Origin: Candidatus Moraniibacteriota bacterium
GTDB lineage: Bacteria > Patescibacteriota > Minisyncoccia > Moranbacterales > UBA2206
Reading direction: 5' to 3'
Length of the DNA stretch: 64,000 nt
NCBI GenBank assembly: GCA_030645735.1
Contig: JAUSNP010000003.1
Location: 167,411 to 231,410 of the forward strand
The translations under genes and the position numbers were made by a program. Positions 15,707 to 21,314 of the stretch are shown here, one piece after another; position 1 is the stretch's first letter, and the number at the start of each line of letters is the position of its first letter. Under the pieces are notes generated by a model. It saw nothing but the letters and a program-made list of their open reading frames with translations. It made no database searches and had not been told where the DNA came from.

Positions 15707-17119
15707 ATGAAACTAAAAAGTAGAATTTTTTTATCAATGTTTATCATAGCCAGTTTGGTTGTGGTTTCTGGTTTTGGTTGCAAGCAAACAAATCCGAAGA
15801 AATATCTAATTAATTTAGAGGTTTGGGGCTTGTTTGATGATCAAGATACTTTTGCGGAAATAATTGATAATTACAAAAAAACTAATCCGAATATTGGGAA
15901 GATTACCTACAAAAAGTTAATGCCGGACACATATAAGCAAGAAGTTATGGACGCGTTGGCAGCAGGAAATGGCCCAGATATTTTCTTGATTCAAAATAAT
16001 TGGTTAGCCCCATTTGCTAATAAGATTTATCCTGCGCCCCTAACTTTTCTGACGGAAAAAAGATTCAAGGATAATTTTGTAGATGTGGTGGCACAAGATT
16101 TTTTGAACACTGATGGTGCCTATGCGGTTCCACTGAGCGTGGATTCTTTGGGTCTCTATTATAACAAGGATCTTTTCAATGCCGCTGGTATAACTAATCC
16201 GCCGAAAGATTGGAATGAATTTGTGGAAACTTCTAGAAAATTAACCAAGCTTGATGCTAGTAATCAAATTGTTATTTCAGGCGCAGCTATGGGTACAGCT
16301 TATAATATTAATCGGTCAACTGACATTTTGAATCTGTTGATGTTGCAAAATCAAACGGAGATGATTGACGCGACTGGCGGACGAGCAATGTTCGATCAAA
16401 TTGCTAAGAAAGAGGGTCGAAGTTCGATTCCGGGGCAAGAGGCTTTGGATTTTTACACTCAATTTGCCAACAGCAGTTCATCACAATATTCATGGAATTC
16501 AAAAATGCATTATTCAACGGACGCTTTCAGTGAAGGCACATTGGGAATGATGGTGAATTATTCTTGGCAAATGGATACAATCGCTAAAAAATCTCCGAAA
16601 TTGAATTTTGCGGTGGCTCCAGTGCCACAACTGCCTGAGAGCGTGCCCGTAAATTATGCCAACTATTGGGCGTTTGCAGTGGCAAAAAACAAAACACCTG
16701 ATACGGCGGGCATTCCACCAGCGCAAGCGGCCTTGGTGACCAATGATATCCGTGTGGCAGAAGCTTGGGGATTTTTGCTCTATCTGACAACCAAACCAGA
16801 ACAATCGGTGGCGACTTCCACTGGTGTGTCTGGCGCAGGCCAAACAGTGAATTTGAATTTTGATCCAGCCAAAAATTATTTAGAAAAAACCCACAAGGTC
16901 GCAGCTCGACGGGACTTGATTGAACAACAAAAAACGGATGCCAAGCTTGGACCATTCGCAGAGGGGAATTTGATTGCAAAAAATTGGTATCAAATAAATT
17001 CAGAAGCCATTGAATATTTATTTGCTGATATGATCAATCAAGTTAACCGTGGGCAGTCTTCGGTGGCCGATGCTCTCAAAACAGCGGCAGTGGCCGTGAG
17101 CCAAATGATGAGTAAGTAA
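15707..17119 (+). CDS. Extracellular solute-binding lipoprotein (ABC-transporter SBP family 1, sugar-type)
   Basis: Signal peptide with lipobox-like VVSGFGC. 470 aa periplasmic-binding-protein pattern. No permease or ATPase genes adjacent. Confidence 0.6.
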   Translation: MKLKSRIFLSMFIIASLVVVSGFGCKQTNPKKYLINLEVWGLFDDQDTFAEIIDNYKKTNPNIGKITYKKLMPDTYKQEVMDALAAGNGPDIFLIQNNWLAPFANKIYPAPLTFLTEKRFKDNFVDVVAQDFLNTDGAYAVPLSVDSLGLYYNKDLFNAAGITNPPKDWNEFVETSRKLTKLDASNQIVISGAAMGTAYNINRSTDILNLLMLQNQTEMIDATGGRAMFDQIAKKEGRSSIPGQEALDFYTQFANSSSSQYSWNSKMHYSTDAFSEGTLGMMVNYSWQMDTIAKKSPKLNFAVAPVPQLPESVPVNYANYWAFAVAKNKTPDTAGIPPAQAALVTNDIRVAEAWGFLLYLTTKPEQSVATSTGVSGAGQTVNLNFDPAKNYLEKTHKVAARRDLIEQQKTDAKLGPFAEGNLIAKNWYQINSEAIEYLFADMINQVNRGQSSVADALKTAAVAVSQMMSK

Positions 17120-17146: not shown

Positions 17147-18421
17147 ATGAAAATTAAATTAGTCATAGGTTTATTCTTGTTGTCGATATTTTTGTTGGTT
17201 CCAACAATTAGTCTGGCTGTTGATGGGGATTATGGCAGTGTTAATTTGGCGCCAGCCAACAATGCTGCTGGCGGACTGGTGCCATGTGGAAATGGTGGCG
17301 TGGAAACTGCTTGTACGCTGTGTCACTTCGTGATTGGTTTTCAAAATCTGGTGAATTTTATGCTGAAGCTGGTGATTACGATGGGGTTTGTGGGGATTTT
17401 TGCGGCGGGTGTGATGTATATCATTTCGGCGGGTGATGACAAAATGATGGGCAGCGCCAAGAGCGCCTTGACTGCTAGTCTAATTGGATTTGGTATCGTG
17501 ATGGGGGCATGGCTGATTGTGAATGTGACCATCTGGGCTCTGGGCGCCAACATTGGTGTGGCCACAGGACAAAATTGGTATGATTTTAATTGTTCGACAA
17601 GAAGTTCGACAGTTCCAAATTCAGCACCGGTGGTGACAGCAGAAAATTGTTGTGTTGTTGGACCTGGTCGTTGCTCTCATGTGAAAGATTCTAGTGAATG
17701 TTCATCTGGAACATATAAAACTGGATCCTGTGCAGACATAGCAGATTGTCTAAATGGCGGTACAGAATGTGGAATAGGTGGAATTGGACAATGTAAATCG
17801 GGCGTACTTCCGGGAACTTGTCCAGATGGTTGGAGTGCTACGATGGGAAATCTTTCCAACCCGTGTGTCAGTGGTACAAAATGCTGTGCAAAAAATGGTG
17901 AGGCCCCTGAAACATGTGCAGGTGGTTCTGGAAAGTGTTTTTATGGTTCACTTGTTTGTCCATTAGGATATGGTAATAGTCTTGGATTATGTTCAGCGTC
18001 AACATCCGCCTGTTGTGCAAAGAATGGTGAATCAACTGAAGTCTGTGCAGGTGGTGCAGGTAAATGTTTCAACGGCACAAGTGTTTGTCCGACAGGGTAT
18101 ACTAGTAATGTTGGTACTTGTTCAACAGCACAGTCCGTATGTTGCACATCTCCCGCAACTGTTGCCCCTGGAATTGTATGTGGCATAAATAGTTTAGGAG
18201 AATGTAAGGCCGGAATTTGTCCAGATAACTATAGTGTGATATTGGGGAGTCCAACTAACCCTTGTCCAAATGGAACAAATTGTTGCGCGAAGAGTGGTGA
18301 ATCAACTGAGACTTGTGCTGGTGGTGCAGGTAAATGTTTTTATGGCACTAGCTCATGTCCTCCTAATCGCACACGTACTGTTGGTATATGTTCGGCGTTG
18401 CAATCGGCTTGTTGTAAATAA
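17147..18421 (+). CDS. T4SS-pilin-like (VirB2/TrbC-like) secreted membrane protein with 4 C-terminal Cys-rich ~45-aa tandem repeats
   Basis: Signal peptide; LVPCGNGG...CTLCHFVIGFQNLVNFMLKLVITMGFVGIFAAGVMYIISAGDDKMMGSAKSALTASLIGFGIV; then 4x CCAKNGE..E.CAGG.GKCF.G...CP.GY.....CS....CC. Confidence 0.65.
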   Translation: MKIKLVIGLFLLSIFLLVPTISLAVDGDYGSVNLAPANNAAGGLVPCGNGGVETACTLCHFVIGFQNLVNFMLKLVITMGFVGIFAAGVMYIISAGDDKMMGSAKSALTASLIGFGIVMGAWLIVNVTIWALGANIGVATGQNWYDFNCSTRSSTVPNSAPVVTAENCCVVGPGRCSHVKDSSECSSGTYKTGSCADIADCLNGGTECGIGGIGQCKSGVLPGTCPDGWSATMGNLSNPCVSGTKCCAKNGEAPETCAGGSGKCFYGSLVCPLGYGNSLGLCSASTSACCAKNGESTEVCAGGAGKCFNGTSVCPTGYTSNVGTCSTAQSVCCTSPATVAPGIVCGINSLGECKAGICPDNYSVILGSPTNPCPNGTNCCAKSGESTETCAGGAGKCFYGTSSCPPNRTRTVGICSALQSACCK

Positions 18422-18435
18422 TTTTAAATAAAAAA

Positions 18436-19257
18436 ATGAAAATCAAAATAATCACGATTTTATTTCTGCTGGGATTTTTTACTGCAAATGTTACAAGTGC
18501 AGCCGGCATAATAGAAGATATGGCAAATAGCGCTACGCAAAATGCAACAACCTATGTTGAAAACGCAGCAGCTGACAAAGTAAATGATCTAAAAGCTCAG
18601 GCAACGGGACAGGTTATGGAGCAAATTAACAAATATGCCCCATCAACAACCGCAACAACCTCAACGCCAGTGGCGCAACCAGTTGCTAGTTCTGGTACAG
18701 TATCGAGTACAGGTGCATGTGGCGCAAATCAATTTTGCAATCCATTGGGCAACGTGAACACTGTGTCGGGTGTGTTGAGCAACATCCTCAGCAATTTGAA
18801 AGGCGTCATCGCCAGCATCGCCATTGTATTTATTGTGGTGGGTGGCTTTATGTATATTCTTTCAGCTGGTGACGAGAAGATGATCACCAAAGCCAAAGCT
18901 ACAATTGGTGGCGCTTTGATTGGTTTGGCTATCGCTTTGGCGGCGCCAACATTCCTAAAAGAAATTGTGGCGATTCTGTCCACGGGCGATGGTGCTAGTG
19001 CTGATGCTGCCGTGGCTGCCGCGCCAACAATCAAGCAAATCGCGACCAGAGTTTTGAATTTACTGTTGTCGCTTGTCGGAATTATTGCTATGATTGGTTT
19101 AGTGATTGGTGGTTCATTTTATCTCACTGCCTATGGAGATGAAAAGAAAATTGAAACTGGTAAAAAGATTATTACCAATTCAATGATTGGAATTGCCGTA
19201 GCAATGATAGCCTTGGTGCTGGTGAGACAAATCGCTGGATTGCTAGGAGTTCAATAA
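18436..19257 (+). CDS. Pilin-like protein with two tandem VirB2/TrbC-like two-TM modules
   Basis: Signal peptide. Two copies of L..L.G.I..I..V.GG..Y....GDEK.I..AK....G.LIG.AIA motif. Confidence 0.6.
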   Translation: MKIKIITILFLLGFFTANVTSAAGIIEDMANSATQNATTYVENAAADKVNDLKAQATGQVMEQINKYAPSTTATTSTPVAQPVASSGTVSSTGACGANQFCNPLGNVNTVSGVLSNILSNLKGVIASIAIVFIVVGGFMYILSAGDEKMITKAKATIGGALIGLAIALAAPTFLKEIVAILSTGDGASADAAVAAAPTIKQIATRVLNLLLSLVGIIAMIGLVIGGSFYLTAYGDEKKIETGKKIITNSMIGIAVAMIALVLVRQIAGLLGVQ

Positions 19258-19279
19258 ATTTGAAAAAATAAAAAAACAA

Positions 19280-19368
19280 GCCGATGCGAATCTACGAAAG
19301 TACACGAATCTACGAACCATTTTCGTATATTTCGTAGATTCGCATTGAATTCGTAGTTTCGAATCGGC
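19280..19368. promoter_or_regulatory. ~90-bp imperfect palindrome built from four copies of a 12-mer (CGAATCTACGAA x2 direct, TTCGTAGATTCG x2 inverted) upstream of pilin-like gene 19393
   Basis: gccgatgcgaatctacgaaagtacacgaatctacgaa...ttcgtagattcgc...ttcgtagtttcgaatcggc. Confidence 0.5.
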
Positions 19369-19392
19369 ATAATCTAGAAAGGTGGGTGTAAT

Positions 19393-19755
19393 ATGAAAAA
19401 TAAAATTAAAGCATTAGCTTCTGCTTCAGCATTGACGATGATGGCTTTGCCAGCTTTGGTTTCTGCAGCGCCAGCATTTCAAGCGCCTGCTGGAACCGGT
19501 TTGCCAGAAGGATCAATCACCGGAATCATCACTAACATTATGAACTGGCTTTTGATGCTAGTTGGAATCATCGGTGTGATTGGTTTCGCAATCTCTGGTA
19601 TTCTATATATGACAGCGGCTGGAGATGAAGGACGAATTGAACAAGCCAAATCTGCCATGATGTATTCCATTATTGGAGTTATCGTAGCAATTATTGGAGT
19701 TGTTGTTATCAAAGCGGCTCAAGGATTGTTGGGTGGATCAAACTCATCATTCTAA
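19393..19755 (+). CDS. Pilin-like VirB2/TrbC-like small secreted membrane protein
   Basis: Signal peptide ...ALVSAAPA; GIITNIMNWLLMLVGIIGVIGFAISGILYMTAAGDEGRIEQAKSAMMYSIIGVIVAIIGVVVIKA. Confidence 0.6.
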   Translation: MKNKIKALASASALTMMALPALVSAAPAFQAPAGTGLPEGSITGIITNIMNWLLMLVGIIGVIGFAISGILYMTAAGDEGRIEQAKSAMMYSIIGVIVAIIGVVVIKAAQGLLGGSNSSF

Positions 19756-19882
19756 CCGACATTTCTATACTAAAAAACGACCTGTGGATAACTGGTCGTT
19801 TTTTAATTTTTTAGACTAGAATTTTTTTTGAAAAGTGGTATAATATAAATAGTAAAATAAATTTTTAAATAAACAAAAAACA

Positions 19883-20332
19883 ATGATTAAAAAAATAAAA
19901 GTAGCGTTGTTGTTGGTGGCAGTATATTTTGTGGTGTCTCCCGTGAGTGCGTCTGCATATTCTTGCTTCCCAATCCCGCTCCCTGGTTGCACAACTCCTG
20001 GTTTGCCCGGCGTAGATTTCGGTGGTTCTGGTGGTGGAATAAATGGTGGATGGTCGACAGGCAATGTTTCTGGCTATGGCCTGCCAGAAGGCTCAATCAC
20101 AGGTATCATTGAAAACATTTTAGTGTGGCTGTTGATGATGTTTGGAATCATCGGCATAATTGGGTTTGTAATCTCAGGACTCATGTATGTTTTAGCAGCT
20201 GGTGATGAAAAAACGATTGAGAAAGCTAAATCAGCTATGAAAAATTCAGCCATCGGTGTGATTGTTGGAATTTCCGGTTTTGTGATTATCAAAGCAGTCG
20301 ACACCATTCTCAACGCTTATAGCGGAGTTTAA
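19883..20332 (+). CDS. Pilin-like VirB2/TrbC-like small secreted membrane protein
   Basis: Very similar to the 19393 product: GIIENILVWLLMMFGIIGIIGFVISGLMYVLAAGDEKTIEKAKSAMKNSAIGVIVGISGFVIIKA. Confidence 0.6.
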   Translation: MIKKIKVALLLVAVYFVVSPVSASAYSCFPIPLPGCTTPGLPGVDFGGSGGGINGGWSTGNVSGYGLPEGSITGIIENILVWLLMMFGIIGIIGFVISGLMYVLAAGDEKTIEKAKSAMKNSAIGVIVGISGFVIIKAVDTILNAYSGV

Positions 20333-20351
20333 TATTTTTTTAAATAAAAAA

Positions 20352-21314
20352 GTGAAAATAAAAATCATTATTTTTTTAGCAGTAATTGCCATTGTATTTT
20401 TTGGTAAGCCTGATAGTACTCACGCCTCGAATTGTTCAGGTAGATGCGGGTTGATGTGTACAGTAAATGAAAATGTGTCATCGGATGCTTTTGAATATTG
20501 TGACGCTGCTGGAGAGCAGTGTTGCAAACCCAAACCAGAATGTGATCCAACAATGCCTGGTTGTGGTGGCACAACATCAGCTAAAGCGCCAGCGACCGTG
20601 GGCAACGCTTGTGGAGGAACGCCAGATTCTTTTTGCGAAGCTGGATCATTTTTTTGCTCAACTGGCAGAACGCGTGATTTTACAAAAGGAAGTGTATCTT
20701 GCGTGAGCGGATCTATATGTTGTAAGAACGATGTGAAGACAGGAACATCATCAACATATTCAACAACGGCCAACTCAAGTGCTAATTATCTTAATGAAGG
20801 TGATGCATGTGGAGCATCTGCCACTAGTTCTAAGATATGTAATACAACATTAAGGTTGTCTTGCGTATGTGGCACAGACGCCTCAGTCGCAGCCGCTTGT
20901 CGTTGTCAAAAAAGTTCTGGAGGCGGAACATCTGGTTTGACTTCTGAAAACAAATCTGGTGGCGGAACATCTGGTTTAACTCCTGAGGCTAATCAATATG
21001 ACTCTCCCGCGCTAACTCAGGCAGATTTTGATACAATCGCTGGACAAACTGGCTTGCCTGCTCCAGTTGGTGGTATTAAAAGTATCTTGAAAAATTTATT
21101 GATTTGGTTATTGGAAATTGTGGGTGTAGTTGCTTTGATTGGCTTTGTGATTGCTGGCACTCAATATATTTTGGCTTCGGGCGATGAAAAATTAGCCGAA
21201 GCAGGCAAAAAGAATATGACTTATGCAATTATCGGGATGGTGGTGGTGTTGTCATCGTTTGTGGTTATTAAAGCGATTGATTATGCTCTGCGAGCTAGCT
21301 CCTCGGCATTTTAG
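20352..21314 (+). CDS. Cys-rich secreted protein with C-terminal VirB2/TrbC-like pilin module
   Basis: Signal peptide; Cys-rich N-terminal region; SGGGTSGLT direct repeat; C-terminal IKSILKNLLIWLLEIVGVVALIGFVIAGTQYILASGDEKLAEAGKKNMTYAIIGMVVVLSSFVVIKA. Confidence 0.6.
   Translation: MKIKIIIFLAVIAIVFFGKPDSTHASNCSGRCGLMCTVNENVSSDAFEYCDAAGEQCCKPKPECDPTMPGCGGTTSAKAPATVGNACGGTPDSFCEAGSFFCSTGRTRDFTKGSVSCVSGSICCKNDVKTGTSSTYSTTANSSANYLNEGDACGASATSSKICNTTLRLSCVCGTDASVAAACRCQKSSGGGTSGLTSENKSGGGTSGLTPEANQYDSPALTQADFDTIAGQTGLPAPVGGIKSILKNLLIWLLEIVGVVALIGFVIAGTQYILASGDEKLAEAGKKNMTYAIIGMVVVLSSFVVIKAIDYALRASSSAF

Follow-up and report, generated by a model that had tools for sequence, protein, structure and literature searches.

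A tandem array of five pilin-like genes in a housekeeping neighborhood

Five consecutive plus-strand genes encoding six two-helix pilin modules lie at positions 17147-21314 of the 64-kb stretch of a Candidatus Moranbacteria MAG that we analyzed (hereafter, the window). We refer to these genes as g1 to g5, and every feature described below is on the plus strand. They comprise a g1-type pilin (g1, 17147-18421, 424 aa), a double-module pilin (g2, 18436-19257, 273 aa), a short plain pilin (g3, 19393-19755, 120 aa), a short pilin whose outer N-terminal segment contains one Cys pair (g4, 19883-20332, 149 aa), and a protein with an N-terminal Cys-rich ectodomain and a C-terminal module (g5, 20352-21314, 320 aa). 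All five are open reading frames at the coordinates given in a first-pass annotation of this DNA, and they are spaced 14 to 135 nt apart. The GTG start of g5 is supported because g1 and g2 have a matching upstream sequence and MKIKI-type N-terminus. In NCBI, g1 is already annotated as “pilin” (MDO8240638.1, 100% identical) and g3 as “TrbC/VirB2 family protein.”

Upstream, the array adjoins a gene for an extracellular solute-binding protein (SBP; 15707-17119, Pfam SBP_bac_1, 112 bits), with a gap of 27 nt to g1. Of 80 related loci, 61 have an SBP homolog upstream of the pilins, at a median distance of 46 nt from the first pilin ORF; the SBP is also found in L001, L005, and L007. The SBP gene is possibly co-transcribed with the array, and the SBP and the pilins may be functionally tied. 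The surrounding genes are housekeeping in nature (infB, rbfA, nusA, tig, rpoB, rpoC, recA, and a genuine FtsK). In agreement with the first-pass annotation, which had reported no VirB4-, VirB6-, or VirB11-type genes nearby, we found no VirB4, VirB6, VirB11, or VirD4 in the window. The window also contains a DGR, 33 kb from the array, whose target is another gene.

Family membership and predicted topology

Searches with the Pfam model PF18895 (T4SS_pilin; gathering cutoff, 26.6 bits) placed g2 (63.4 bits, in two stretches), g3 (42.2 bits), g4 (33.0 bits), and g5 (40.9 bits) above the cutoff and g1 slightly under it (25.2 bits; E, 1.8e-5). Homologs of g1 carry PF18895, and the g1 module aligns with those of g2 to g5. 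The TrbC/VirB2 model PF04956 matched g3 (29.8 bits; E, 7e-7; cutoff, 27.9) and gave no match to g1, g2, g4, or g5; a precomputed PF04956 match is present in many g2 homologs. The six modules share the consensus ..IGF.I.G..Y..AAGDEK..E.AK....S.IG.., with pairwise identities of 23 to 61%. As for additional paralogs, a possibility raised in the first-pass annotation, a module HMM run against 701 six-frame ORFs recovered no seventh copy within the window.

In the hydropathy profiles, all five proteins have a hydrophobic N-terminal segment resembling a signal peptide, and the number of hydrophobic helices in each is even. Since the number of helices is even, every Cys-rich segment is expected to fall outside the cell. 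A heuristic charge count of 12 modules found two to four Lys and Arg residues in the hairpin loop of every one, compared with zero to three, and mostly zero to two, in the flanks. These heuristics match a VirB2-type layout, in which a signal peptide is followed by a two-helix hairpin with its loop inside and both termini outside, while no likeness to solved structures of VirB2, TraA, or TrbC pilins was detectable. Taken together, the sequence data support the view that g1 to g5 are pilin-like paralogs of the VirB2/TrbC superfamily (PF18895) with signal peptides and membrane hairpins. The first-pass annotation had proposed this family, the two-helix module with its consensus, the signal peptides and hairpins, and the extracellular placement of the Cys-rich parts, and our analyses bear it out on each of these points; for g1 and g5, the Cys-rich parts must lie outside if the predicted topology is correct.

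Architecture of the individual pilins

g1 begins with a signal peptide (17147-17218), followed by an LVPCG..C..CH motif (17276-17326) and the two-helix hairpin (17318-17551), which is also present in an AF2 model (helices at aa 58-93 and 98-135; pLDDT, about 80 to 84). The motif, which the first-pass annotation had correctly noticed, is invariant in the form LVPCG-x7-C-x2-CH in 26 g1-type homologs, and the module is present in all 70 g1 homologs found. g1 also has a Cys-rich C-terminal tail of 275 aa. This tail had been described as containing four Cys-rich repeats; using a regular expression and an HMM, we instead find five tandem six-Cys repeats (17759-18418), preceded by a CC-first six-Cys unit in a low-confidence linker (17642-17755, aa 166-203). 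The repeats span nucleotides 17759-17896, 17906-18025, 18035-18154, 18170-18295, and 18305-18418, with six-Cys units at aa 208-247, 257-290, 300-333, 345-380, and 390-423, and follow the framework Cx6-7Cx4-8Cx10-14Cx5-6CC (typically Cx6Cx6Cx10Cx6CC). A search of the repeat region against 1.84 billion representatives returned pilin-fused relatives only.

The previously annotated double module (g2), short forms (g3 and g4), and SGGGTSGLT repeats (g5) are all present. In g2, a signal peptide and about 70 aa of outer sequence containing a single Cys pair are followed by module 1 (18721-18990) and module 2 (18991-19254). All 119 homologs listed for g2 contain two modules, and each module has its own separate ortholog in L001. 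g3 is the best-conserved member and a candidate bulk subunit: it is 91% identical to its ortholog in GW2011_GWA2_39_41. Alone among the five genes, it is preceded by a Shine-Dalgarno-like GGTGG and an upstream promoter-like site (19345-19373). The modules of g4 and g3 are 61% identical, and 214 nt of their DNA are 70% identical. In g5, a 205-aa ectodomain with 20 Cys residues (20427-21041), containing two copies of the SGGGTSGLT linker (20916-20981), precedes the module (21042-21311). Units of the form C..C..C..C..CC occur in g5 at aa 28-58 and 87-124. The HMM of the g1 repeats did not detect them, and therefore only the Cys framework is common to both.

The g1 repeats are predicted to resemble beta-defensins

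The spacing of the six-Cys framework of g1 is typical of beta-defensins when compared with published consensus patterns. An AF2 model of a single repeat has three strands (pLDDT, 92.5), and a Foldseek search of the PDB with this model yielded 14 matches, all of which have the beta-defensin fold and none of which is significant (E, 1.0 to 6.7). The TM scores of 0.44 to 0.57 and probabilities of at most 0.44 refer to a predicted model and possibly reflect a bias toward the Cys pattern. In sequence-based searches with Pfam Defensin_beta (cutoff, 21 bits), repeat R5 of g1 scored only 11.5 bits (E, 0.31), weak matches were obtained for 5 of 30 units (best E, 0.11), and the sole match of a repeat profile to PDB sequences was a CC segment of a hydrophobin (E, 0.065). 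The guess in the first-pass annotation that the repeats might be defensin-like is the best structural lead.

We compared the repeats with members of the beta-defensin (trans-defensin) fold, namely, human beta-defensins 1 and 2, AvBD11, BDS-I, APETx1, and the coral Hact-SCRiP1; the sea-anemone peptides BDS-I and APETx1 have this fold. Both AvBD11 (Cx6Cx6Cx7Cx6CC) and the g1 repeat (Cx6Cx6Cx10Cx6CC) contain six Cys residues and end in CC, and a three-stranded sheet is predicted for the repeat as well. The g1 units differ from beta-defensins in being bacterial and tandemly arranged, in their attachment to a membrane hairpin, and in their nearly neutral charge (net, -2 to +3; pI, 4.8 to 8.7). We consider the g1 repeats to be predicted beta-defensin-like mini-domains whose likeness to beta-defensins is likely a result of convergence.

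The array is conserved across Moranbacteria and its ectodomains vary

A block consisting of MTase-SBP, pilins, and NusA recurs across Moranbacteria, and five genes with six modules are the modal state, observed in 26 of 39 complete loci. In the L001 genome, where the flanking proteins share just 57 to 75% identity with those here, orthology is one to one and positional, with identities of 41% (g1), 49% (g2), 60% (g3), 50% (g4), and 32% (g5). Judged by these alignments, the five paralogs are old positional orthologs and not recent duplicates. The ectodomains, in their presence or absence and their repeat number, are the part that varies across species: the L001 ortholog of g1 has three repeats instead of five, the L001 ortholog of g5 has a shorter ectodomain, and the g1 ortholog of an approximately 80% identical relative is 142 aa long and lacks the Cys-rich tail. 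In other Patescibacteria, modules of this type are joined to VWA, PKD, Ig-like, SLT, and NlpC/P60 domains. In proposing that the family is diversifying by duplication, the first-pass annotation erred in timing, given the positional orthologs and the modal five-gene, six-module state.

Gene order suggests a link of the array to type IV secretion

In 5 of 80 Moranbacteria species, a double-module pilin is directly followed by PrgI, TraC-like, and VirB4 genes. Four of these loci (L050, L057, L075, and L081) have the order MTase, SBP, g1-type pilin, and double pilin, with PrgI and TraC-like genes directly thereafter; VirB4 comes next in L057 and L075, that is, wherever the contig extends far enough. 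The fifth, on an incomplete contig (L056), contains only the double pilin, PrgI, TraC-like, and VirB4 genes. The g1-type pilins adjacent to T4SS genes likewise end in six-Cys units, and a further g1 homolog (P0032 in L004) is located inside a PrgI/TraC-like/VirB4 cluster. In the closest named relative, GCA_000995125.1, VirB4, TrsD, and PrgI are encoded about 290 genes from its copy of the array; there, a published screen flagged the g2 ortholog, the sole array gene it flagged, as not near VirB4. Among the 15 Moranbacteria in the portion of a published Table S1 covered by the analysis, 13 have VirB4.

Going by this gene order, the array is probably T4SS linked though the window itself is devoid of T4SS genes, and VirB4 would be encoded outside the window in this genome, as it is in relatives. 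The earlier conclusion that the genes are unlikely to belong to a canonical conjugation system stands, and patescibacterial T4SSs are mostly without relaxases (PMC12102498). The reason then given for it, that VirB4 is missing nearby, does not set the array apart from a T4SS, as the five species, L004, and the closest named relative show.

Comparison with known pilins and pilin arrays

A total of 441 tandem VirB2-like arrays of 2 to 11 genes have been reported in Patescibacteria (PMC12102498), and in Southlakia epibionticum ML1 a 6-pilin array is essential (PMC10633639; PMC12857230). The former study counts as an array at least two pilin genes, in tandem or one gene apart, with low mutual identity, and g1 to g5 are such a set. 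Like the arrays of Southlakia, TM7x, and the 441 just cited, they are tandem, strongly diverged PF18895/VirB2-like genes on a reduced chromosome; mean and maximum identities in published arrays are 25% and 54%, compared with 23 to 61% among the modules here, and in both cases the T4SS is relaxase poor and of the monoderm type. Unlike the published arrays, g1 to g5 are found apart from virB4, between MTase-SBP and nusA, and they include a double-module pilin and two members with large Cys-rich ectodomains, features not described in the accounts of patescibacterial arrays examined here. While an array as such is already known, the ectodomain variant (two members, with a predicted beta-defensin-like fold) is possibly new.

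The proteins resemble the conjugative VirB2/TrbC/TraA pilins of diderms (PF04956) in their signal peptide, two-helix hairpin, short charged loop, and predicted placement of both ends outside, and the score of g3 above the PF04956 cutoff is a further likeness. They differ in having a monoderm host, no evidence of cyclization, ectodomains of up to 275 aa, one fused double module, and no match to solved pilin chains. The Mbov_0395 family of Mycoplasma ICEs (NCBIfam NF045849) likewise consists of small pilin-like proteins with two helices, belonging to a wall-less/monoderm T4SS; g2 to g5 match it weakly, all below the 40-bit cutoff (best, 33.7 bits, g3), and are not members. VirB5 on T4SS pili, the large minor pilins of type IV pili, and the tip adhesins of sortase pili have no homology to g1 and g5 and offer a functional analogy only: g1 and g5 would similarly combine a filament-compatible anchor with a variable outer binding domain beside plain bulk subunits.

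A model for the array and its alternatives

These observations led us to a model, which we regard as probable, in which the array is the form that the VirB2-like pilin array of Patescibacteria takes in Moranbacteria and works with a monoderm-type T4SS (VirB4, TrsD, and PrgI) encoded elsewhere. Each protein would be exported by Sec and its signal peptide cleaved, after which the two helices would insert with both ends outside; the GDEK..AK loop is placed in the cytoplasm because of its charge bias and because all Cys-rich parts fall outside. Disulfides are predicted between the outer cysteines, so that g1 would carry strings of beta-defensin-like beads and g5 would carry Cys-rich units. By homology, T4SS ATPase machinery would then extract the hairpins from the membrane to build a pilus or short stalk. 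The plain g3 and g4 would make up its bulk, with g2 as two subunits joined covalently; the accounts of these systems examined here report no Patescibacterium in which a pilus has been observed. g1 and g5 may be low-copy subunits whose ectodomains, outside or at the tip, contact the host cell surface. This low-copy or tip role is an assumption, made because a VirB2-type tube would have difficulty accommodating a 275-aa ectodomain on each of its subunits, and the types of domain involved suggest an adhesion role.

We also considered whether the two-helix module is a mere membrane anchor that statically displays outer domains at the cell surface, Cys-rich beads in this case and wall-hydrolase or adhesin-type domains in others, with neither a filament nor a T4SS ATPase, which we judge to be a distinctly less probable though credible reading. 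The range of unrelated outer domains fused to one end or the other of the module would be in line with such display, as would the solitary pilin-domain genes found in housekeeping contexts far from T4SS genes (L003 and L006), the separation of the array from VirB4 here, and the lack of detectable similarity to solved pilins. It leaves unexplained, however, why conservation is best in the plain g3 and g4, which are almost without an outer part, why the five-gene, six-module set is fixed, why in some species PrgI, TraC-like, and VirB4 genes directly adjoin the block, and why the Southlakia array is inside a T4SS cluster and essential.

Given their Cys framework and predicted fold, which match beta-defensins and sea-anemone toxins, and the weak Defensin_beta matches of 5 of the 30 units, the repeats could instead be antimicrobial or membrane-active peptides released or presented against the host bacterium, with the pilin as an export or tether device. 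We find this very improbable: the units are near neutral, whereas defensins are cationic, processing sites are not evident, a close relative does without the ectodomain, and no defensin similarity reaches statistical significance. Antigenic or phase variation, a role suggested for VirB2 paralogs in Bartonella and Anaplasma (an analogy drawn in PMC12102498), would make the array a cassette of recent duplicates that exchange sequence to switch the exposed pilin. Tandem divergent paralogs and the start regions common to g1, g2, and g5 (families D10 and D14) are compatible with such a cassette, to which we nevertheless give little credence: orthologs specific to each position exist in distant relatives, the DNA of any two paralogs is no more than 70% identical (over 214 nt), no tandem DNA repeats or recombination-type repeats were found within the array, and the window's DGR is distant and directed elsewhere. 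Under the model of a T4SS-associated pilin array, the conservation of the hairpins alongside the gain, loss, and resizing of ectodomains between close species fits adaptation to different partner surfaces.

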